The translations under genes and the position numbers were made by a program. From Actinomycetota bacterium (GTDB lineage Bacteria > Actinomycetota > CADDZG01 > JAHWKV01), in NCBI GenBank assembly GCA_040905365.1, contig JBBDRQ010000034.1:69151-133150 (forward strand): DNA of 64,000 nt. The letters are read 5' to 3'. Shown one piece after another: positions 6,186 to 62,856 of the stretch; positions within the stretch are counted from its first letter, which is position 1; each line of letters starts with the position of its first letter. The notes beneath the pieces were generated by a model. That model saw only the letters and a list, made by a program, of their open reading frames with translations. It was not told where the DNA came from and searched no databases.

Positions 6186-7937
6186 ATGCCTATAAGCGGC
6201 CAGAGCTTCGCATCGATCGGTGTTCAAACCGCCGAGGTCGAGTTCGCACCTTTGCTGGTCGGGTTCCTAGGCGGGCTGGCCCTCCTGCTGTTCGGCCTGG
6301 GTCACCTCACCTCGGCGCTAAAGGGGGTGGCCGGCGACAGTCTGAGGGCCCTTCTGGCCCGCCTGACCGGCAACCGCTTCAAAGCGGTTTCCACCGGGCT
6401 GGTTACCACCGCCGTCCTTCAATCCTCCACGGTGACCACCGTTCTCGTGGTCGGATTCGTCGACGCCGGTCTGCTCAACCTAACCTCCGCACTCGGGGTC
6501 ATCCTGGGCTCCAACGTGGGCACCACCGTTACCGCCCAGGTCGTAGCCATCGACGTGGCCGATTGGGCTTTGGCGCTGGTAGCGGTGGGCTTTGCCGCCG
6601 CGCGGTACGCCAAGAGCGAGCGCTTCACCGGCTGGGGCAACGCGGTGCTGGGGCTAGGCTTGGTATTCGTGGGCATACAGGCTATGGGCAGCGCCACGTC
6701 TCCGCTGAGCGGCCACCCTCCCTTCCTGGAAGTCCTGGCCGGGCTGCGCAATCCTGTAATTGGAGCTGCGGCGGGCGCGGTCCTGGCCGCCCTGCTTCAC
6801 TCCTCATCGGCCACCACCGTGCTGGCTATCGTCTTTGCTTCCGAGGGCCTGCTGCCACTGGAGGCCGGCTTGGCCGTGGTCATTGGGGCCAACGTCGGCA
6901 CCTGCGTCACTGCGGGGTTGGTGGCCGTCGGCAAGTCCAGGGACGCCCAGCGGGCCGCAGCCGGACACATTGCGTTCAACCTTGCCGGCGCCGTTCTGTG
7001 GTTGTCCTTGATCTCTCCGTTGGCGACGATAGCCGCCGCAGCATCGCCGCAACACCCGGAGCTGGAGGGCACGGCCCGCCTGTCCGCCGAAGTCCCCCGG
7101 CAGCTGGCCAACGCGCACTTCGTCTTCAACGTCTCCAACGTAGTGCTCCTCATCGGGCTGCTCCGTCCAGCCTCCACCCTATTGCGGCGGATCCTGCCCG
7201 ACCGCACCGATGTCCCTCCACCCGTCTCCACTCCCCGCTACCTAAACTTCGACCTGCTTGCCACGCCCTCACTGGCCTTGGTTGCGGTTCAGCACGAAAT
7301 GAGACGGCTGGGCGAGCTCGTAATCGACATGCTGGAAAAGGCTCCCCACGCAGTTCTTTCCGGGAACCGATCGAGCTTGGAGGAGCTTGAAAAGGACGAC
7401 GAAAACGTCGACGCCCTGTATTCGAGCATGGTCGCCTACCTGGCCCGGCTGACCGAGACTTCCCTCTCCGGGTCCGACGGGCAGCGCCTGCTCACTCTGC
7501 TGGAGGCAACCAACGCCCTTGAGAGCATCGCCGACCTGGTCGAGACGAACCTGGTGGCGCAGGGCAGGCGGCGCCTGGACTCGGGCGGCCAGGTCAGCGA
7601 AGTGACTAGGGGCCTGCTCACAGACCTGTTCGCCTCGGTCAACTCCACGGTCGCCGACGCCCTCAAAGCAGCAGTGGACGACGACGCCGGAGCCAGGGCT
7701 CGAGTCCAGGCCGCCAAGGGCGACATCAACCGCAGGCTCGACGCCGCCCGGGGCCATCAGGTACGCCGGCTGATCGAGCAGCATGGGAATCGCCGCCTGC
7801 TCTACGCGATCGAGACCGATGTCATAGATGTCATAAAACGGATCGAGTACCTCGCCCGCCACGTGGTAAGGCCCCGGCCGGCCACCGGCGTACGCATAGG
7901 CCAGGACCGGTTCGGCGCCGTCGAGGAAGAGCCTTAG
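6186..7937 (+). CDS. Na+/phosphate symporter (NptA family) with C-terminal PhoU-like domain
   Basis: Tandem NptA-type membrane repeats (QSSTVTTVLVVGF... / HSSSATTVLAIVFAS...) followed by a PhoU-like helical domain. The tool ORF starts at 6081 but the first in-frame ATG with an adjacent GAGGAG is at 6186. The true start may be a downstream TTG. Confidence 0.75.
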   Translation: MPISGQSFASIGVQTAEVEFAPLLVGFLGGLALLLFGLGHLTSALKGVAGDSLRALLARLTGNRFKAVSTGLVTTAVLQSSTVTTVLVVGFVDAGLLNLTSALGVILGSNVGTTVTAQVVAIDVADWALALVAVGFAAARYAKSERFTGWGNAVLGLGLVFVGIQAMGSATSPLSGHPPFLEVLAGLRNPVIGAAAGAVLAALLHSSSATTVLAIVFASEGLLPLEAGLAVVIGANVGTCVTAGLVAVGKSRDAQRAAAGHIAFNLAGAVLWLSLISPLATIAAAASPQHPELEGTARLSAEVPRQLANAHFVFNVSNVVLLIGLLRPASTLLRRILPDRTDVPPPVSTPRYLNFDLLATPSLALVAVQHEMRRLGELVIDMLEKAPHAVLSGNRSSLEELEKDDENVDALYSSMVAYLARLTETSLSGSDGQRLLTLLEATNALESIADLVETNLVAQGRRRLDSGGQVSEVTRGLLTDLFASVNSTVADALKAAVDDDAGARARVQAAKGDINRRLDAARGHQVRRLIEQHGNRRLLYAIETDVIDVIKRIEYLARHVVRPRPATGVRIGQDRFGAVEEEP

Positions 7938-8842
7938 AATCCCCTGGCCAGCGACTCGACGTGCGAGTCCACCCGGCACAGGCCGACGGTTCCGTTGATG
8001 GCGGTGGAGTCTTTGATCTCCAGGTGGTTCTCGGGCGAGTACCAGGCCACCCGGTTGATCGTCACGTCCAGGGATCCCTGCGACGAGGCGCCCGTGACCT
8101 TGCTCACGGTTCGAAGACGGTGGGCGGGAAGAACCGCCCCCCCGGCCAGCGTTACCGACTCGGAAAGAGCTTCCACCGTCACCGTCGTGTCCATCCGCAC
8201 CCGGCCGTCCGGCGACGTCAGATCGAACTGCAGCGTCTGACCTGGCTGCGGATAAGCAGGGATCAGCCGGACCGGCGGGTCGGCCCTGAACTCGAACTCC
8301 AGTGTCTGCAGCGCCACGGTCTGGGACTGCCGAAGCGACACCAGGTACGCTCCGTCGTCCCGATACTCAAGAGTCAGGTCCAGCACCGACTCCACCGAGG
8401 AAGCGTTCAGGTTGTCCCTCAAGATTCGCTGCCGGCGGCCCTCGGGTCCGTAGACCGACAGCCGCACCGTATCGGGCACCTCCTGCGCGCTGGTTAGACA
8501 TCCGCGGGTCGATACGTTGCCGTTTTGGTCAAAAGTGTAGGTGCCCTTGGGCGCCACTCCTGTGGACGGCGGCCCCTGCTCCCCTACCGGCTCGGGGACC
8601 GGCGGCGGCAAAGCCGGCGGCTCCGGCGGGGCGGGCGGCGGTGCGGGCGGCGGTGCGGGGCTCGGTGCCGGCGGGGTCGAGCTCGCCGCGGGCGAAGGCG
8701 TCGGCGAGGGTGCGGGCGTGAGACTGGGTGAAGGCGTCGGCGTCGGAGAGCTCCGCAGTTCGGTTTCGGTGTTAGATCCACATGCGCCCAGCAACATGGC
8801 CGCGCTGAGCAGTACCGCCGCCAAACGGTTCTCACTACTCAT
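7934..8842 (-). CDS. Secreted lipoprotein with Pro/Ala/Ser-rich linker, last gene of ABC exporter operon
   Basis: Signal peptide with lipobox (LLGAC), a long low-complexity PTPTPSPS...PAPPPAPPPAPPEPP linker, then a globular C-terminal domain. Start overlaps the upstream permease stop. Confidence 0.7.
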   Translation of the reverse strand: MSSENRLAAVLLSAAMLLGACGSNTETELRSSPTPTPSPSLTPAPSPTPSPAASSTPPAPSPAPPPAPPPAPPEPPALPPPVPEPVGEQGPPSTGVAPKGTYTFDQNGNVSTRGCLTSAQEVPDTVRLSVYGPEGRRQRILRDNLNASSVESVLDLTLEYRDDGAYLVSLRQSQTVALQTLEFEFRADPPVRLIPAYPQPGQTLQFDLTSPDGRVRMDTTVTVEALSESVTLAGGAVLPAHRLRTVSKVTGASSQGSLDVTINRVAWYSPENHLEIKDSTAINGTVGLCRVDSHVESLARGF

Positions 8843-27208: not shown

Positions 27209-28171
27209 TCACCCGTCCACTATCAGGCTCGCGGAACGTTCGAACTTTCCGACGATCCGGACCTCTGGAAGCAACGTAACCCCTGCGTTTTTTAGAACCT
27301 TTGACTGGATGTGAGCCATCAGGTCAAAGACGTCTTGAGCAGTAGCACCGGGGCCCGCCAGCAGGAAGTTGCCGTGCTTGCCCGAAACCTGCGCACCCCC
27401 AATTTTGAGCCCCTTCAGCCCTGCTGCGTCTATCAAACTGCCGGCCGACGACCCGGGTGGGTTCTTGAACGTCGAACCCGCGTTGGGAGCCCTGGACGGC
27501 TGGGTGTCGGCTCGGTGGGTCCGGTATAGGTGCATCTTCTCCAAAATCTCGTCACGGTCTCCCCTCTGGAGAGAAAACCTCGCTGCGCAAACCAAGTTGC
27601 CTTCGCCGATCAGCGCGCTTCGGTAACCCATATCCAAGCTCTGCACCGGAATCTCGCTGAACGTGCCCTCACGCAAGCTGCAGACCCTGACGGACTCCAG
27701 CACATGAGACAAGTCCGAACCGTGGGCGCCGGCATTCATCGCTACGGCGCCTCCCACAGTGGCCGGGATTGCGACCGCAAATTCCATCCCCGCAAGGCCC
27801 CGGCGGGCCGCCCAGTTCGCCACCTGCGGCAACGAAGTGCCGGCCCCTGCCTCGATGGTGTCGTCGCCCAGCGCTGCGATCTGATCGAAACCCTTGGCCA
27901 GCCGTAGAACAATCCCCGGGAAGCCCAGGTCGGAAACCAACAGGTTGCTCCCCTTGCCGAGCATGAGGATCTCCATCCCTGTCAGCGCGACGATCTCGGC
28001 CGTAACGCTCAGATCGGTCTCGCTCACGGGTTCCACGAGGACCGCCGCTCGACCGCCTACGCGAAAAGAAGTCAGGGGAGCCAGCGACTCGTCGAGGGCG
28101 GTCCGGCCTTCGATACGCGGCAGCAACCCCTGTACCGTACTGCGGGTTTCGTCATCCATTTCCTCAAACAC
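27209..28171 (-). CDS. murB: UDP-N-acetylenolpyruvoylglucosamine reductase
   Basis: FAD-binding PCMH region (TSFRVGGRAAVLVEPVSETDL...LGKGSNLLVSD) and C-terminal MurB domain. Confidence 0.9.
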   Translation of the reverse strand: MFEEMDDETRSTVQGLLPRIEGRTALDESLAPLTSFRVGGRAAVLVEPVSETDLSVTAEIVALTGMEILMLGKGSNLLVSDLGFPGIVLRLAKGFDQIAALGDDTIEAGAGTSLPQVANWAARRGLAGMEFAVAIPATVGGAVAMNAGAHGSDLSHVLESVRVCSLREGTFSEIPVQSLDMGYRSALIGEGNLVCAARFSLQRGDRDEILEKMHLYRTHRADTQPSRAPNAGSTFKNPPGSSAGSLIDAAGLKGLKIGGAQVSGKHGNFLLAGPGATAQDVFDLMAHIQSKVLKNAGVTLLPEVRIVGKFERSASLIVDG

Positions 28172-30701: not shown

Positions 30702-31871
30702 TCACCCTCTACGTCCACTTAAAGGTTCGTGAACTCTCCTGCCGCGTCTTGCAATCGAAAGAAGAAGACCCATCGCCGCCATGGCTAGAACCAACGAGGA
30801 ACCGCCGAAAGAAATAAGCGGAAGCGGCACGCCCGTGATGGGCAGCAGACCGGAAACCGCGGCCATATTGACCAAGGCCTGCAGACCAATCCACCCCGTA
30901 ATGCCTCCGGCTACCAGTAGACCGAAGCGGTCCGGGGCGTTGCGGGCTACCCGTACCCCAAGAAATATCAAAAACGCGAACAGGAGCAATACCAGCAGTG
31001 TGCCGGCCAAACCCAACTCCTCACCAATGATCGCGAATATGAAATCGGTGTGAGCATTGGGTACGTACGACCACTTTTGCCTGCTGGCCCCAAGGCCTAC
31101 ACCGAAAAAACCGCCGCTACCGAACGCCAGCTGCCCCTGAATGATGTGGTAGCCGGTGTCGAGCGGGTCTGCCCACGGATCCAGAAAGGAGAACACCCGT
31201 TCCCTCCTATAGGCCCGGCCGAGCGCCAGCATCACCGCGGCTGCCATACCGCCGCCGGCCAGCGCCGCGACATGAGCCAACCGCGCTCCGGCGAGAAAGA
31301 GCACTACGACCATACTCCCGCCCACGATGATCGCAGTTCCCAGGTCGGGCTGAGCGATGATCAACCCCAGCATCAAAGCGGTCGCCGGAAGAATGGGTAC
31401 CGCCATCTGTGCACGGTCCCGAATCCGCACCCCCTTGGATTCCAAAACGTGGGCCGCAAAGATGATGATCGCCAGTTTGGCTATCTCCGACGGCTGAATG
31501 TTCAACGGACCCAGCACAAACCACCGACTGGATCCGCCCCTGGTGGTACCCACAAACGGCAGGATCACAAGCACCAGCATGAAAATGCAGACCGCGAACA
31601 TCGGGCGGGCCAACCCCCTCAACCTACGATAGTCCGCCTTAGCCAGCACCGTCATAGCCACCAGTCCGAGGCCGGCACCGATGGACTGGCGGTAGAAATA
31701 CGAAAAGGACGAACCGGACTCCCGAAAGGCCTGGACCGATGACGCGGACAGCACCATGACCAGCCCTAAAACCGCCATTGCCAGGACGGTGAATAGCAGC
31801 GGTAGCTGCGGGCGCTGCAGTATCCGGCGTATCCGAGCGCTGCGTTGCGGTGCGGTGGCAACCGAGTTCAA
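30702..31871 (-). CDS. ftsW: SEDS-family peptidoglycan glycosyltransferase FtsW
   Basis: 389-aa 10-TM SEDS protein in the canonical slot upstream of murG. Confidence 0.88.
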   Translation of the reverse strand: MNSVATAPQRSARIRRILQRPQLPLLFTVLAMAVLGLVMVLSASSVQAFRESGSSFSYFYRQSIGAGLGLVAMTVLAKADYRRLRGLARPMFAVCIFMLVLVILPFVGTTRGGSSRWFVLGPLNIQPSEIAKLAIIIFAAHVLESKGVRIRDRAQMAVPILPATALMLGLIIAQPDLGTAIIVGGSMVVVLFLAGARLAHVAALAGGGMAAAVMLALGRAYRRERVFSFLDPWADPLDTGYHIIQGQLAFGSGGFFGVGLGASRQKWSYVPNAHTDFIFAIIGEELGLAGTLLVLLLFAFLIFLGVRVARNAPDRFGLLVAGGITGWIGLQALVNMAAVSGLLPITGVPLPLISFGGSSLVLAMAAMGLLLSIARRGRRVHEPLSGRRG

Positions 31872-32000
31872 AAGCTGCGCGCCTTTCCGATCGTGAAGCG
31901 GTCAATCAAATTGGATCCCTCTGCCTCCGTATGCCCTCCGGACATTCTGGACGCGCAGGCCGTCTGCCGACCGGATATCCGCACGGGCGGTCGCCCCCCT

Positions 32001-33053
32001 TTATCCGATTCCGCCGGCTGCTATGAACTCCGCGTAGAACAACCCGAGGCCAAAGGCGATCGAAAGGGCAGCCAAGACCCAGAACCTCACGATTACCGTG
32101 AACTCGGGCCAGCCGGCCAGCTCGAAGTGATGGTGTATAGGAGCCATCAGGAAAAGCCGGCGTCCGAAGAGCCGGTACGAGATGACCTGAAGGACAACCG
32201 AGGAGACCTCCACCACAAAAAGACCGCCGAGCACAATGAGCAGCAGTTGGGTATTGGTCAAAATCGCGAGCGCCGCCATCCCGCCGCCGAGCGCCAGCGA
32301 TCCGGTATCCCCCATGAAAATCTTCGCCGGCGCCGCGTTCCACCACAGGAAGCCGGCGGAGGCCCCCAGCATCGCTGCGGCAACCATCGCCAGATCAAGA
32401 GAGTGGGGAGCGTGGTAACAGCCGGCGGAAAGCCCGCCGGGGCCGCCGCATGGGTGCCGAACCTGCCAGAACGCAATAATGACGTAAGCACCCATAACCA
32501 TCGCTCCAGATCCGCAACACAGGCCGTCAAGGCCGTCCGCCAAGTTGGTACCGTTGGACGAGGCGGAGATGATCACAAATATCCAAACCACGAACAGCAC
32601 CCCCAACCCGACCCCCAGAGGCCGAACGAACGACACCTCCCGAGCCGCTTGGGTATGCGGCGAGATTGCTACGAAGGCCAGTGCGATCAGCGCCTGGCCC
32701 AGCAGCTTGGCCGTCTTGTTCAACCCCAAGGATCGACGGCGGTTGACCTTTAGGTAATCGTCTACGAACCCCAAAAGCCCCATCGAGAGGATGGTGCCGA
32801 CCGCCAGCAAGCCGCTGCTGGTCAAAGGCGTGAGACCGGGAATCAGATGGGCGACAAAAAACCCGATGAGCGCGCCCCCTACGATCACCAACCCGCCCAT
32901 GGTGGGCGTACCGCGCTTGACAAAGTGGGCCTGAGGTCCGTCCTCGCGTACGAACTGGCCGATCTTTTTGGTAGTGAGAATGCGGATGGCCAGCGGCGTC
33001 AGCACCAGAACCAACAGAAAAGCTACCGCCGCGGCGACCAGAATCCTGATCAA
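32001..33053 (-). CDS. mraY: Phospho-N-acetylmuramoyl-pentapeptide transferase
   Basis: 350-aa polytopic protein with MraY N-terminus and the conserved GTPTMGG / DDxxD-like regions. Stop overlaps the murF start. Confidence 0.93.
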   Translation of the reverse strand: MIRILVAAAVAFLLVLVLTPLAIRILTTKKIGQFVREDGPQAHFVKRGTPTMGGLVIVGGALIGFFVAHLIPGLTPLTSSGLLAVGTILSMGLLGFVDDYLKVNRRRSLGLNKTAKLLGQALIALAFVAISPHTQAAREVSFVRPLGVGLGVLFVVWIFVIISASSNGTNLADGLDGLCCGSGAMVMGAYVIIAFWQVRHPCGGPGGLSAGCYHAPHSLDLAMVAAAMLGASAGFLWWNAAPAKIFMGDTGSLALGGGMAALAILTNTQLLLIVLGGLFVVEVSSVVLQVISYRLFGRRLFLMAPIHHHFELAGWPEFTVIVRFWVLAALSIAFGLGLFYAEFIAAGGIG

Positions 33054-42898: not shown

Positions 42899-43603
42899 TC
42901 AGTCAAGCTGGCCCAACGCGGCGGTCAACTTCCGCGCCTCTCCCGCCGGGTCGTCGCTCTGGGTCAGGGCCCGCACCACCGACACCCGCCCGGCGCCTGC
43001 ATCCAGCACCGAGCGTACGTTCGAGGCATTGATACCTCCGATGGCAAAGACCGGCTTGGTGGCCCGCTTAGCAGCAGCCCGAACCAGGTCCAGGCCCACG
43101 GCCGGCCGCCCGGGTTTGGTGGGCGTGGCAAACACCGGACCAATCGCGCAGTAGTCGGCCGTTGAGGCGGTCGCCGACTCCAACTGATCGACCGAGTGGG
43201 TCGATACCCCGACAATCAGCTCGGGCCCCACCTGACGGCGGGCCTCGTCGAGGGGCAGGTCTTGTTGCCCCAGATGTACGCCGTCGGCTCCTGCCGCGAT
43301 CGCTACATCTACTCGGTCGTTCACAATGAACAGGGCCCCGGCGGCGGCCGTACGCCTCCTCACCACCTCGGCGTACCTCAACAAAGGCCCTGCCTCCATC
43401 TGCTTCTCCCTCAGCTGCACCATCCCGACCCCTGCGTCCAAAACCTCTGCCAGAAAGCGGTCCAAGTCACCCGCCGCAGACCGCGCGTCGGTGACCAGGT
43501 AGAGGCGGCACTCTCCCAATTGCGCATTCGGCGGATCAGCGCGCGCTGCGTTGCGAATCCCGTCCTCCTCCTCTTTGTCCTTTTTCTCCTTGGGTCGGGG
43601 CAC
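42899..43603 (-). CDS. thiE: Thiamine-phosphate synthase
   Basis: TMP-TENI fold motifs (LYLVTD, VQLREK, VNDRVDVA, GADGVHLGQQD, GVSTHS, DYCAIGPVFATPTKPG, AIGGI). The N-terminal 25 codons are K/E-rich low complexity and may not be translated; an internal TTG is possible. Confidence 0.85.
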   Translation of the reverse strand: MPRPKEKKDKEEEDGIRNAARADPPNAQLGECRLYLVTDARSAAGDLDRFLAEVLDAGVGMVQLREKQMEAGPLLRYAEVVRRRTAAAGALFIVNDRVDVAIAAGADGVHLGQQDLPLDEARRQVGPELIVGVSTHSVDQLESATASTADYCAIGPVFATPTKPGRPAVGLDLVRAAAKRATKPVFAIGGINASNVRSVLDAGAGRVSVVRALTQSDDPAGEARKLTAALGQLD

Positions 43604-43747
43604 AAACCTCTTAAGCGACGTGACAAGTTTGTCACGGCACAGTAATTTTCTCGTATCGACTCTCGATCGCGACGAAGGCCCAGCCGGACCAGGATCAATC
43701 CGGCGCGCGAGCCGAGGGCTTAATCACCGACTCGAGGGGGTGAATAA

Positions 43748-44221
43748 TTGTTCGAAGACCGACAAGTGGTAGTACTCGGCGAACGCGACGGCGTCTCCGG
43801 GGGTGCCATATCGGCCTGCGTGGAGGCCATCGGCGGGTCCCACATCGCTTTCGCCGCCACGGAATGCTTTGTCTGAACGGCCTCAGGAGCCATGGATCTG
43901 CAACACCAGGAGGTAATCCTGGCGCTCTCCAATGAACACGGCCCGGAGAAGCTGCTCATCATCTTGGGTTCGCCCGACGCTGAGAGTGCGCAAGTCTCCG
44001 CCGAAACCGTAGTTCTGGGAGATCCGACTTACGCAGGTGCTTTGGCCGAGGTCCAGTTGGGCCTCGACGTTTACCACATACTAGAAGATGAGATTCGCAG
44101 CCTAGTCCCCGAGGACGTCTTCGAGGAGCAGGTGGGGCTCATGGCCGACGTGCTCGATACCGACGACATCACCGCCACCCTGCGCGACATAAGGTCGCAA
44201 TCGCCGGCACCGGAGTGTTAG
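43748..44221 (+). CDS. grdA: Glycine/sarcosine/betaine reductase complex selenoprotein A homolog with in-frame UGA selenocysteine codon at 43874..43876
   Basis: TTG start at 43748 preceded by GAGGGGGUGA (43733-43742) and by an in-frame TAA at 43745. The translation reads through TGA as Sec: (M)FEDRQVVVLGERDGVSGGAISACVEAIGGSHIAFAATECFV-U-TASGAMDLQHQEVILALSNEHGPEKLLIILGSPDAESAQVSAETVVLGDPTYAGALAEVQLGLDVYHILEDEIRSLVPEDVFEEQVGLMADVLDTDD... This matches the GrdA pattern VIIIGDRDGIPGPAIAEC...STECFVUTAAGAMDLENQ...VVLLGAAEAESAGLAAETVT.GDPTFAGPLAGVQLGL along the whole 157 codons (from memory of the family, not a database hit). The ORF track shows only 43892..44221. Confidence 0.8.
43886..43929 (+). 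ncRNA. Candidate bacterial SECIS hairpin within grdA, 10 nt downstream of the UGA
   Basis: GGAG (43886-89) pairs with CUCC (43926-29), enclosing an upper stem CCAGGA (43906-11) / UCCUGG (43917-22) with apical loop GGUAA (contains G and U). The geometry is comparable to SelB-binding SECIS elements. Structure inferred by eye only. Confidence 0.4.
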
Positions 44222-44587
44222 TACTAGGCACATCGGGCCGCAACCCGGGTCCGTTGTGCGCCACCCTCGGATGAGGGACAACTTCTACGCGCCCGTTCCC
44301 GCGGGTACCTCTCCCGCGGGTACCTCGACATTCTGCAACATTCGACACATGCCACAAGCACAAAACGTCAATTGCTACTTGACATAGCACCACTTTTCGT
44401 GAATGATTTGCACACTCAGTAGCCGGAACCTTTTTTAACAGGAGATCCAACAGCAAGCTGTCCGGGCCCGTAGAATTAGCCCAATTTAATAAGCAGAGCT
44501 TTGTTGCGTTACTCACTGGATTAGTCGGTAGTAATTCAATAGCATGAGCCACGCATTTGTCATGCGCCGAAAGAGGGCTTTTAACGC

Positions 44588-44617
44588 TTAGATACTTAGA
44601 TAGATTTAGATAGATAC
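44588..44617 (+). promoter_or_regulatory. Three TTAGATA direct repeats (8/10-nt phasing) in the AT-rich leader of the sortase-substrate gene
   Basis: cTTAGATAcTTAGATAgatTTAGATAgatacag at 44588-44617. A strong AGAGGAG Shine-Dalgarno (44631-37) follows, 9 nt before ATG 44647. A TTGACA hexamer at 44377-82 with AATGAT 17 nt downstream is a possible sigma70-type promoter. The surrounding 44330-44640 is markedly AT-richer than the window average. Confidence 0.45.
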
Positions 44618-44646
44618 AGACGCACAAAAAAGAGGAGTAAATCTCA

Positions 44647-46434
44647 ATGTCGGGCACACAAAGGAAGAAAAAGGGGGTTACCAGGGTAACTGCGCTGCTC
44701 GCGCTGGTTGCCATGGGCCTAGCCCTCGCTCCCCAGGCAGCGCTGGGTCAAGTATCCTTCAGCGATGCAGATTTTTCCGGTTACGCGACCGGTACCTACC
44801 TTCACGCCGACGCACTGACGCTAGGCTCATCCCCCACCGTCAAGGCCGACCTCGGCTGGTCCGGCGCGTCCGTCGCTTCCAAAGGGCTCGATACCGCGGT
44901 GAGCGATGAGCTCGGCCGGGTCGTCCAACCTTCCGTACCCGGCAAGAACAGCTACGGCGCAGGGTTTGGTCTGGACGTCAGTCTGCTCGGCAGCGACATC
45001 CTCCAGCAGCAGGCCGCAGCTGCAGCCGCCCCTCCCTCCACGGAGTTGATCAAGAAGACCCTGGTAGGACCCATTGATGTACCCGGCGTGCTCTCGGCAG
45101 GCGTTGTAGAAGGCAGGGCTCAGGCAACCTACGACCCGAACAACTGCATCCTCGGTAAGGACCTCAGCTACGGCCAGGGCAACGTGGCCGACGCCTCGCT
45201 TCTGACCGGCGACGTGCTCGGTGGCGTCGGAGACACTCTTTCCGCTCTGTTGGGCACCGACCCGAGCAGCCAGGACCCCGGAGCAGTCCGCTCCTCCTCG
45301 CGCACCCGGTTGGTTCCTCAGACCGATGAGGGTGGCAACATTGTCGGCCCGAACTTGGGTCTTCTGAGCGAAACCCGTCAGACGCTTGCTCCAGTCGTTC
45401 TGTTCCAGGGCGTGCCCGGGGCAGAGCTCACCATTGAGCTGCTGGGTGAATGGGTTATCCAGGCGGTTGCCACCGGTATTCCGGGACAGTCGTACGTCAG
45501 CTACCAGCCGGGCACCGCCAACGGCGAAACACCGGTGCTCAAGGTAACCAACACGCTTCCGCTTCCGGACGCCGGTTCCGAGTTGGTAGAGGGCCTCACG
45601 GTCACGCTCGACCAGCTACTGGGCATCGTTCCGCTCGACGACCTGCTCCAGGGCGACCTGCTGGGCCTCGGCCTGGTGGAGTTGGTGCTCGACCCCGACC
45701 CCACCGTGACGGAGTCCGCCGACGGCACTCACGCCAAGGGCGTAGTTGATGTCGTGCGGGTCCGCTTGCTCCCCGAGGGCGAGGGACTGCTGGGCGACCT
45801 GCTGGGCACCACGCTGGGCGGCCTTGAGCTTGCCGACGTGCGTGTCGGACACATGGAAGTCGAGTCCAGGGTCCCGGTCGGCGGCATCACCTGCGCAGGT
45901 GCGGACGTCAAGAAGGCCGCCAACCCGGAGATCGTCAATGCGGGACAGAGCTTCGTCTACTCCATCAACACGACGAACCCGTTCGACTGCGAACTGACCA
46001 GCAACTCTCTGGTCGACACCATGACCGTGCCCGACAACATCGGGTTCACGATCGGCAGCCAGGATCCGCCGGCCAGTTCCACGACGGCCAACTCGGTTAC
46101 CTATAACGACATAGGGCCTATAGCGCCCAAGGAGTCGAAGTCCGTCTCCTTCCAAGTCGCCGTAGCCGATAACGCCGCTAACGGGAACTTTGTGAACCGG
46201 GCCGAGGTGGTGTCCAACTGTGCCTTGGAGACGGCGCAGGGAGGCACGGCCAACGTCCAGCTCACGGCGTTCGACGAAATCGACAAACCGCGGGTGCAGG
46301 CGCAGGAAGCGCCACCGTTGCCAAAGACGGGCGGAACCACCGCCTTCTGGGCAACCATGGCGGTGATCCTCGGGGGCATATCCGTGGCCTCGGCGTTCGG
46401 CTACCGCAAGCTGGGGGGCATCTCCCAGAGGTAA
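44647..46434 (+). CDS. Sortase-anchored surface protein (signal peptide, DUF11-like repeat domain, LPKTG sorting signal)
   Basis: N-terminal signal peptide (KKKGVTRVTALLALVAMGLALAPQAALGQ). The C-terminus has LPKTGG followed by a hydrophobic stretch and RK tail (cell-wall sorting signal). The 'conserved repeat' style domain begins near NAGQSFVYSINTTNP. Confidence 0.85.
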   Translation: MSGTQRKKKGVTRVTALLALVAMGLALAPQAALGQVSFSDADFSGYATGTYLHADALTLGSSPTVKADLGWSGASVASKGLDTAVSDELGRVVQPSVPGKNSYGAGFGLDVSLLGSDILQQQAAAAAAPPSTELIKKTLVGPIDVPGVLSAGVVEGRAQATYDPNNCILGKDLSYGQGNVADASLLTGDVLGGVGDTLSALLGTDPSSQDPGAVRSSSRTRLVPQTDEGGNIVGPNLGLLSETRQTLAPVVLFQGVPGAELTIELLGEWVIQAVATGIPGQSYVSYQPGTANGETPVLKVTNTLPLPDAGSELVEGLTVTLDQLLGIVPLDDLLQGDLLGLGLVELVLDPDPTVTESADGTHAKGVVDVVRVRLLPEGEGLLGDLLGTTLGGLELADVRVGHMEVESRVPVGGITCAGADVKKAANPEIVNAGQSFVYSINTTNPFDCELTSNSLVDTMTVPDNIGFTIGSQDPPASSTTANSVTYNDIGPIAPKESKSVSFQVAVADNAANGNFVNRAEVVSNCALETAQGGTANVQLTAFDEIDKPRVQAQEAPPLPKTGGTTAFWATMAVILGGISVASAFGYRKLGGISQR

Positions 46435-46594: not shown

Positions 46595-47221
46595 GTGGAG
46601 CTAAGTCAGCAGGGACGGCGCAAATTGGCGGTCGTTTTAGCCGGTATGGCCGCGATCACGGCGCTGGGATCCGCGGGTTTTTTCATGTACCCCCTGTACA
46701 CCGACTGGCAGGCTAACCGGACCCAAAGCCAGTTGCGGGATCAGTTCCAGACGGCCAGCCTGAAGGCGGACTACGCGGCCGGCGAGGTGCAAGACGCCTC
46801 CCCCCTCACGCGCATCATCATCCCGGCGATGGGCACGGACACGATCGTGGTGGAGGGCACCTCCTCCAAAGCGCTCAACACCGGCGCCGGCCACTACCCG
46901 AACACGCCCCTGCCCGGAGAGCCTGGTAACGTGGCGATTGCCGGGCACCGCACCACCTACGGCAAGCCGTTCTCTAACTTGGAGGTGCTGAAACCGGGAG
47001 ACAAGATCACGCTGATCACGCCTTTTGCCGAGCACACCTATGAAGTTGTAGACCCTTTCGACGGCCACGCCAATCCATGGGTAACTTCCGCCAGCGACTG
47101 GTCGGCCATCAACCCGACGCCCGAAGCGACGTTGACGCTGACCACATGCCACCCTAAAGGGTCCGACCGGCAACGCCTGATTGCCCGCGCCGTCCTGCTT
47201 GAGTCCAAGGACATCGCATGA
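46595..47221 (+). CDS. Class E sortase
   Basis: GTG start with AGGAG Shine-Dalgarno, N-terminal TM, catalytic His (AGHRTTYG), TLTTCHP cysteine motif and conserved Arg, typical of actinobacterial class E sortases. Confidence 0.88.
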   Translation: MELSQQGRRKLAVVLAGMAAITALGSAGFFMYPLYTDWQANRTQSQLRDQFQTASLKADYAAGEVQDASPLTRIIIPAMGTDTIVVEGTSSKALNTGAGHYPNTPLPGEPGNVAIAGHRTTYGKPFSNLEVLKPGDKITLITPFAEHTYEVVDPFDGHANPWVTSASDWSAINPTPEATLTLTTCHPKGSDRQRLIARAVLLESKDIA

Positions 47222-62277: not shown

Positions 62278-62856
62278 ATGGTTTTCGTAACGTCGACGAT
62301 GCTTCCGCTGAGCAGCGAAATGCCCGCCTTTCAATTGCCCGACCCGTCGGGGAGACTCGTCTCCAGTGAAAGCTTGCAGGGAGCACCGGCAACGCTGGTG
62401 ATGTTCATATGCAACCACTGCCCCTACGTCAAACACATTAAGCCGAAGCTTGCCGAGGTCACCAAGGAGCTGACCGAACGCGGCGTTGCGGTTGTAGGAA
62501 TCAACAGCAACGATCCCGAGAGCCACCCAGATGACGCGCCGCCGGCGATGGCTGAGGAGATCAATAGGTACGGCTACTCCTTCCCTTACCTGGTAGACGA
62601 CACTCAGCAGGTGGCCAAGGCTTTTCGGGCGGCCTGCACGCCCGACTTTTTCCTGTTCGACGTCGACCACAAGCTCGCGTATCGGGGGCAATTCGACGAC
62701 AGCCGTCCGAAAAACGACCTACCGGTCACCGGCTCAGACCTGATGAATGCCGTAGGGGCCCTACTCGAGGGCAAACCGGCACCCGAAGATCAAAAACCCA
62801 GTATCGGATGCAACATCAAATGGAAGCCGGGTAACGAGCCCGAATATTTTGGATAG
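62278..62856 (+). CDS. Thioredoxin-fold thiol-disulfide oxidoreductase (AhpC/TSA-like)
   Basis: CNHC active-site motif in a thioredoxin-like fold. GGAGG Shine-Dalgarno 7 nt before the ATG. Confidence 0.75.
   Translation: MVFVTSTMLPLSSEMPAFQLPDPSGRLVSSESLQGAPATLVMFICNHCPYVKHIKPKLAEVTKELTERGVAVVGINSNDPESHPDDAPPAMAEEINRYGYSFPYLVDDTQQVAKAFRAACTPDFFLFDVDHKLAYRGQFDDSRPKNDLPVTGSDLMNAVGALLEGKPAPEDQKPSIGCNIKWKPGNEPEYFG

Follow-up and report, generated by a model that had tools for sequence, protein, structure and literature searches.

An intact selenoprotein A gene beside thiE in a soil-type Actinomycetota lineage, and a probable split of the glycine-type reductase operon

Why would a gene for selenoprotein A (GrdA) stand by itself? 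GrdA is a small selenol carrier with a CxxU motif. Protein B (GrdB/GrdE) hands it a carboxymethyl group, which it delivers to protein C (GrdC), and thioredoxin then restores GrdA to its reduced form. The classical mechanism is said to have been described likewise by Andreesen in 2004, a work cited within a review. An account of the classical reductase mechanism is given in PMC13188914. The question is raised here by a grdA gene found in a 64,000-nucleotide stretch of contig JBBDRQ010000034.1 from an Actinomycetota bacterium (this whole stretch is called the window below, and coordinates are positions within it unless a locus label beginning with L or P is given). The original prediction held that this gene encodes a selenocysteine (Sec)-containing GrdA which is alone in its region, and that either its partners are encoded elsewhere or the protein has been recruited to a different, undescribed pathway. 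We consider it likely that the lineage possesses a split operon, in which an intact GrdA is kept apart, its partners are encoded in a separate grdE-grdB-grdC operon, and no new pathway is required.

The gene is intact and, by every sequence criterion tested, encodes a bona fide GrdA, probably a functional one. When the single in-frame TGA is translated as Sec, the surrounding motif reads T-E-C40-F-V-U43-T-A-S-G-A-M-D-L (TECFV-U-TASGAMDL). The product matches the Pfam family PF04723 (E=8e-56; 188.3 bits against a cut-off of 22) over profile positions 1-147 of 147, as well as the NCBIfam equivalog NF040748, selenoprotein A of the glycine/sarcosine/betaine reductase (191 bits; cut-off 130). The Sec codon is TGA at the same position in all 80-plus related loci, and both of its flanks are strictly conserved. 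Like clostridial GrdA, the protein matches the family over its full length, has a TGA-encoded Sec in the equivalent place of its CxxU motif, is close in length to the clostridial value of about 155 amino acids (aa) and keeps all family-invariant residues. Gene callers stop at the TGA and split grdA into open reading frames (ORFs) of 42 aa and 106–109 aa, and the homologues present in the protein collection are mostly post-TGA fragments of 105–109 aa. Downstream of the TGA lies a candidate hairpin of the selenocysteine insertion sequence (SECIS) type, which recurs in most of the closest relatives, while deeper relatives fold otherwise; its folding energy is no better than that of shuffled sequences (z = -0.5) and it has no Rfam match. 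A sequence search of the PDB with GrdA returned no solved homologue. As a separate observation, an ENA contig of 1187 bp (P0008) encodes a full-length GrdA homologue, 53% identical to that of the window, whose Sec is replaced by Cys (PECFV-C-TAAGAMDL); according to older surveys (PMC1794560, PMC1242214), Cys homologues of GrdA do not exist.

The rest of the window holds no partner that our searches could find. About 50 ORFs from all parts of the 64 kb were scanned with Pfam, and none of these carried a domain of GrdB, GrdC, GrdD, GrdE, thioredoxin, thioredoxin reductase, SelA, SelB or SelD; tblastn searches of the window with actinobacterial GrdE, GrdB, GrdC, thioredoxin (Trx), SelA and SelB gave no matches. 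The sole thioredoxin-fold gene in the window encodes an AhpC/TSA redoxin (62278-62856), and ARAGORN detected no tRNA in the window, hence no tRNA-Sec. The span around grdA that is free of partners extends at least 43 kb upstream and at least 20 kb downstream. The claim of a Sec-containing GrdA, alone in its region, is therefore borne out by the family matches and by the lack of any grd, trx or sel gene found in the 64 kb.

This solitary placement is a property of a whole lineage. Related contigs were gathered from an NCBI metagenome-assembled genome (MAG; GCA_030447305.1), from ENA (ERZ25039516) and from the Logan and JGI collections, and a scan of one genome per species contributed seven loci from six Actinomycetota MAGs. 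In 16/16 related contigs sufT-thiE is divergent from grdA, the GrdAs being about 70–81% identical over their full length and the GC content of the contigs 0.59–0.66. The shared order is mraZ, HNH, MerR, DUF3040, (a DinB-like polymerase), a hypothetical gene, sufT, thiE and, divergently, grdA, usually followed by the surface protein, sortase and moaA; it is the whole mraZ-to-moaA region that is syntenic across the lineage, not thiE-grdA alone. Homologues of GrdE, GrdB, GrdC and Trx were found on none of these 16 contigs within flanks of 10 kb or less. The original prediction had called the arrangement unusual for the lineage, which does not hold, as all 16 contigs of the lineage have it; it is unusual only against neighbouring lineages. 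Our literature search found no paper on orphan grdA or on the grd genes of these lineages. Several MAGs carry two grdA loci on separate contigs (L006/L007 in DATABX01, L040/L068, L069/L070 and L028/L079), and in DATABX01 both loci are of the thiE-linked orphan type, with two GrdC accessions also in its accession block; such pairs could be strain mixtures in the bins or real duplications.

More distant relatives are organized in another way. The comparison of neighbourhoods in related genomes that was proposed with the original prediction gave the orphan order throughout the lineage and canonical operons beyond it. In more than 130 more distant loci with enough flanking sequence, grdA resides inside a grdE-grdB-grdC operon, usually together with trx, with one partly split exception. 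Approximately 70 of the distant loci are from genomes, namely those of Solirubrobacterales, Thermoleophilaceae, Gaiellaceae, Candidatus Dormibacteria and other Actinomycetota. On every contig of sufficient length these show grdE-grdB(TGA)-grdC-trx-grdA, with GrdAs 59–70% identical to that of the window; the Dormibacteria-type order is grdC-grdA-trx. Many canonical operons have selA, selB and selD directly upstream. Among metagenome GrdC loci with enough downstream DNA, all 80 have grdA, except one partly split cluster. The compact five-gene form grdE-grdB(Sec)-grdC-trx-grdA recurs in soil MAGs (L013-L084, e.g. L029:1479-10462, as well as L086 and L089). Neither grdD nor trxB was seen in the canonical operons. 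Ten loci were also scanned to about 10 kb from the grd operons, and the 25 families listed for them include neither the grdD family (reduct_C_alpha) nor trxB, although this list may lack further families matched in three of the loci. We found no paper on glycine-type reductases in soil Thermoleophilia, Dormibacteria or other Actinomycetota. The Sec motif of GrdB reads U-G-T-G-T-R-C (UxxGxxC) at L176:6977-6997 and in 129 other grdB loci; a review gives the motif as UxxCxxC (PMC13188914), and the sequences compared here are actinobacterial and dormibacterial.

Where, then, are the partners of the orphan GrdA? They were sought with Dormibacteria-type GrdC searches and a metagenome scan, followed by comparison with loci of known context and by a GrdC tree. 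Two kinds of candidates were rejected on the way. P0131, P0142 and P0129, the GrdCs closest to the Dormibacteria-type query, all reside in canonical operons that contain grdA. L148 (GC 0.63) shows grdC-trx with no grdA within 1.5 kb, and the full contig, L174, has grdE-grdB-grdA 8 kb upstream; its GrdA is 53% identical to that of the window, falls outside the orphan clade and belongs to an unrelated lineage. This partly split cluster of a 63% GC organism (L174/L175, JGI Ga0326597_10006920 and Logan SRR9008719) is ordered grdE-grdB-grdA, 2-hydroxyacid dehydrogenase, ATP-binding cassette transporter, alpha/beta hydrolase, aldo-keto reductase, grdC-trx and a MaoC-like gene. Its GrdA reads TACFVU, not TECFVU, and the collection contains no relative of its GrdC that exceeds 65% identity. 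It offers a precedent for grd subunit genes lying apart, although its two parts are still within 10 kb of each other.

In the GrdC tree, ten 90% clusters group together as the sister clade of the Dormibacteria-type GrdCs, which mirrors the place of the orphan clade in the GrdA tree. Two members of this clade were looked up, namely L176 (GCA_029263035.1; 14.2 kb, GC 0.67) and L177 (ENA ERZ1758171; 13.3 kb). Both contigs contain a prephenate dehydratase gene on the minus strand, a flavin adenine dinucleotide (FAD) oxidoreductase gene followed by grdE, grdB and grdC on the plus strand, and a PDZ protein gene on the minus strand, and neither of the two contains grdA, trx or trxB. The grdB of this grdA-less operon contains a TGA in frame and is intact at its C-terminus, and the grdC, at 568 bits, passes the equivalog cut-off of 450. 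The GrdE and GrdB of the lineage match the sarcosine-type models best and far below the cut-offs (218 vs 780 and 314 vs 800, respectively). The FAD oxidoreductase of 473 aa (L176:3232-4653 and L177:955-2376) is encoded on the same strand as grdE and 33–66 nt upstream of it; the protein belongs to Pfam Amino_oxidase/DAO, its CrtI-family matches are well below the cut-off, and its gene is absent from the canonical operons examined. On L177 there is also a ThiO/DAO-like gene nearby (7456-8631). These genes may offer a clue to the substrate.

Orphan grdA and grdA-less operon can be placed in the same genomes through accession numbers, because the Prokaryotic Genome Annotation Pipeline (PGAP) numbers the proteins of one genome consecutively. 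In DATAAN01 (contig DATAAN010000093) the neighbours of grdA are HEX2052993, HEX2052995 (VHJ78_04605) and HEX2052999 (VHJ78_04625), the gaps in this numbering are exactly the slots for the polymerase, sufT, thiE and grdA, and a GrdC of the grdA-less clade, HEX2053089, follows 90 proteins beyond the grdA neighbours. DATLGP01 combines grdA neighbours HVL51533-51539 (VM754_08565) with GrdC HVL50062, DATABX01 combines grdA neighbours HEX2179859-2179863 (VHL54_10175) with GrdCs HEX2178138 and HEX2180489, and a fourth third-party annotation MAG has SufT HEX2150098 and GrdC HEX2149584. In the ENA MAG BH23ACT12, the GrdA fragments CAN5877626 and CAN5877676 carry the locus tags 11760 and 11770, which gives a step of 50 per gene, and the GrdC CAN5861876 has the same residue modulo 50 as these fragments, a coincidence expected by chance in about 1 in 50 cases. 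The four linked GrdC clusters form one tight subclade, and the matching GrdAs do likewise. On good, though indirect, evidence the genomes with orphan grdA thus carry the grdA-less operon, with both loci in at least four sister MAGs. The suggestion that the partners are encoded elsewhere therefore stands. Given these operons that lack grdA, there is no need to invoke its alternative, recruitment to an undescribed redox pathway, which the canonical conservation of the protein also disfavours.

That conservation can be seen from the position and the constraint of the orphan GrdAs. In neighbour-joining trees they form a monophyletic clade with a short stem, which falls within the canonical GrdAs as sister to the Dormibacteria-type group. 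Among 154 non-orphan GrdAs, 48 sites show conservation of at least 97%; 45 of these sites keep their residue in at least 90% of 47 orphan-clade sequences, and the remaining three have the same majority residue at lower frequency in the orphan clade. All 11 fixed differences between the orphan clade and the Thermoleophilia type are conservative or common to the Dormibacteria type. The median pairwise ratio of nonsynonymous to synonymous substitution rates (dN/dS) is 0.10 in the orphan clade (dS about 0.9) vs 0.21 in the canonical clade. Conservation along the whole length together with such a low dN/dS fits neither a pseudogene nor a protein that kept its redox motif alone after the loss of its partners.

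The history that we favour would begin with an ancestor of the lineage that possessed a compact grdE-grdB-grdC-grdA-trx operon, as retained by all of the nearest relatives. The tail of this operon (grdA and trx) would then have been removed, so that grdA would now be a monocistronic gene beside thiE, with its own promoter region and a strong Shine-Dalgarno sequence, near the sortase/surface-protein locus and the dcw region. The remaining chromosomal operon would consist of the FAD oxidoreductase gene, grdE, grdB (with Sec) and grdC, without grdA or trx, and GrdA most likely cooperates in trans with GrdE/GrdB and GrdC, in the manner of the classical complex. We infer from the two loci a joint function and a canonical biochemistry. 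Several points weigh against this reading. The grdEBC operon of the window's own genome is deduced from sister MAGs, an 8.4-kb Logan contig with moaA being the only match to the window's own assembly in the collections searched; the same-genome links rest on blocks of accession numbers, and MAGs can be chimeric; and both the GrdA and the GrdC trees are simple neighbour-joining trees without support values. Moreover, the regions of the lineage that were examined yielded no gene for thioredoxin or thioredoxin reductase, no grdD and no sel gene, and as grdD was near none of the actinobacterial grd operons examined, the system may differ from the clostridial complex.

Among the other explanations, the one that survives best, though we regard it as unlikely, is that grdA became independent for a functional reason, either because its product serves several partners or because the FAD oxidoreductase, GrdE, GrdB and GrdC form a reductase for a substrate other than glycine, sarcosine or betaine. 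If true, soil Actinomycetota would possess a variant selenium-dependent reductase, with no grdD or trx beside the module in the loci examined.

It is less probable still that proteins B and C were lost and that GrdA persists by itself in an undescribed pathway, as a selenol/thiol redox protein that depends on thioredoxin or as a selenium carrier. The lack of partner genes in the window and in the flanks of the 16 related contigs would suit such a protein, as would a promoter region and a Shine-Dalgarno sequence that belong to grdA itself and a placement that has long been stable (dS about 1 or more between members). However, the sister MAGs with orphan grdA also have grdE-grdB-grdC operons from which exactly grdA is missing, the canonical conservation extends along the entire protein and not the CxxU surroundings alone, and the stem branch shows no acceleration.

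We give somewhat less weight again to a link with thiamine, and find it improbable, in which grdA and thiE would share a bidirectional control region and GrdA would serve thiazole or thiamine synthesis. In many actinobacteria thiO-thiS-thiG occupies the place divergent from thiE, and ThiO oxidises glycine. The adjacency of thiE and grdA in all 16 contigs, down to about 70% GrdA identity, is what attracts attention to this idea, but it carries no specific signal because the whole mraZ-to-moaA region is syntenic. The spacer has no thiamine pyrophosphate (TPP) riboswitch or Rfam element and is poorly conserved except for the grdA Shine-Dalgarno sequence, and all other GrdAs of the radiation reside in grd operons without thi genes. 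Finally, that the TGA is a true stop and grdA a decaying pseudogene left after operon loss is very improbable, for although gene callers yield two ORFs and the SECIS-type hairpin is energetically not significant, the TGA sits at the Sec position of the family in every related locus, both halves are in frame and strongly conserved at the dN/dS given above, the grdB of the partner operon likewise needs Sec decoding, and close relatives showed no frameshifts or premature stops.

The surroundings of grdA are summarized in Table 1. The original prediction described the gene as divergent from thiE across a 144-nt spacer and as lying between thiE and a sortase surface-protein locus, and both descriptions proved accurate, with an LPKTG protein and a sortase downstream. 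In the window thiE is followed by a SufT-like Fe-S assembly gene. Since thiE and grdA diverge, the spacer between them must contain the promoters of both. Its only strongly conserved block among 10 related loci compared is AGGAGGTGA; upstream of the grdA Shine-Dalgarno sequence conservation is weak, with a motif CAGGTTATTCTCT present in most relatives. Judged from its sequence, grdA has its own translation signal with a strong Shine-Dalgarno sequence. An Rfam scan of the spacer gave nothing at E<=1 except a chance small-RNA match inside thiE, and neither a TPP nor a glycine riboswitch was found by Rfam in the spacer or in the AT-rich stretch downstream of grdA.

This downstream stretch was originally described as an AT-rich island. 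Its low GC is real (0.42 over 44350-44649 vs 0.63 for the whole window), but an island it is not, as the region is a conserved promoter and leader. It contains TTGACA (44379-44384) and, after 17 nt, AATGAT (44402-44407), a sigma-70-like site matching 10/12 positions and the only such site in the scan. In L005 and L008 the corresponding spacer aligns with this stretch, including the promoter-like block and the CTCAGTAGC motif after it; this alignment and the conserved block ruled out the idea of a foreign island. No terminator-like site (intrinsic terminator) or Rfam family was found in the low-GC region. We regard the stretch as the putative promoter of the surface-protein gene together with its long leader; nothing evident connects it to grdA. 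The order 3' of grdA is surface protein, sortase, a second membrane-anchored protein and moaA, and the L001 orthologue of the 595-aa surface protein matches CLIPPER/DUF11. In some relatives a gene for a GAF/ANTAR-domain regulator lies between grdA and the surface-protein/sortase locus (L004:10881-11486, L007:3188-4231, L009:6901-7947 and L010). The ANTAR gene is immediately 3' of grdA in three relatives, where the window has only the AT-rich leader, and in L004 che-like genes accompany the regulator insertion.

Table 1. Features at and around grdA in the window
Feature	Position	Strand	Remarks
thiE, thiamine-phosphate synthase	42899..43603	-	PF02581 and TIGR00693; divergent neighbour of grdA
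thiE/grdA divergent intergenic region	43604..43747	.	144 nt; head-to-head genes
grdA Shine-Dalgarno sequence GAGGGGGTGA	43734..43743	+	4 nt ahead of the start codon
grdA coding sequence	43748..44221	+	TTG start at 43748; TAG stop at 44219-44221; 157 aa; from ORF list and translation
Sec codon of the C40-x-x-U43 redox motif	43874..43876	+	in-frame TGA, sole interruption of the grdA frame
Candidate SECIS-type hairpin, CCAGGA-GGUAA-UCCUGG	43906..43922	+	32 nt past the UGA
Low-GC intergenic region	44222..44646	+	425 nt; leader and promoter-like site of the surface-protein gene
LPKTG-anchored secreted surface protein	44647..46434	+	595 aa; signal peptide and sorting motif
Sortase	46595..47221		downstream of the surface protein

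The remainder of the window consists of a dcw cell-division cluster together with ileS, dnaE, hisD, malQ, glgX, recN and others. The dcw order is mraZ, mraW, ftsI, murE, murF, mraY and then directly ftsW (130-nt gap; 30702-33053). There is no murD at its usual mraY/ftsW place and only three Mur ligases occur within the window, and murB (27209-28171) is located between murC and ftsQ.

Compared with known systems, the locus belongs to a familiar family in an unfamiliar arrangement. Unlike the clostridial system, grdA of the window is alone by thiE and not in an operon with grdB, grdE, grdC, grdD, trxA and trxB, and its host is an uncultured 63% GC Actinomycetota of soil-type metagenomes, not an anaerobic Firmicute. 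The operons of Thermoleophilia, Dormibacteria and other soil Actinomycetota encode the nearest GrdAs, share the TASGAMDL context and have the same GrdB motif as the partner operon; in these operons, however, grdA comes last or one gene earlier, and the operon often adjoins selA/selB/selD, whereas in the lineage of the window grdA and trx would have left the operon and the FAD oxidoreductase gene precedes grdE. Dispersed grd genes have a parallel in Treponema denticola, where grdA (TDE0745) lies far from grdB2 although the complex is considered complete. That grdA keeps trx genes alongside, while the window's grdA has no grd, trx or sel neighbour in 64 kb. Accessions for the dispersed grd genes of T. 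denticola are listed in PMC1242214.

For the biology of these organisms, the lone grdA of the lineage should be taken neither for a new pathway nor for an annotation error; it belongs to a known family, in a gene arrangement specific to the lineage, and is probably ordinary in function. Sec-dependent glycine-type reductases are widespread in MAGs of soil Actinomycetota and Dormibacterota, and one lineage among them has stably split its grd operon. The soil operons, with no grdD seen beside them in the loci examined, are relevant to the reductive glycine pathway and to Stickland-type metabolism outside the Firmicutes.

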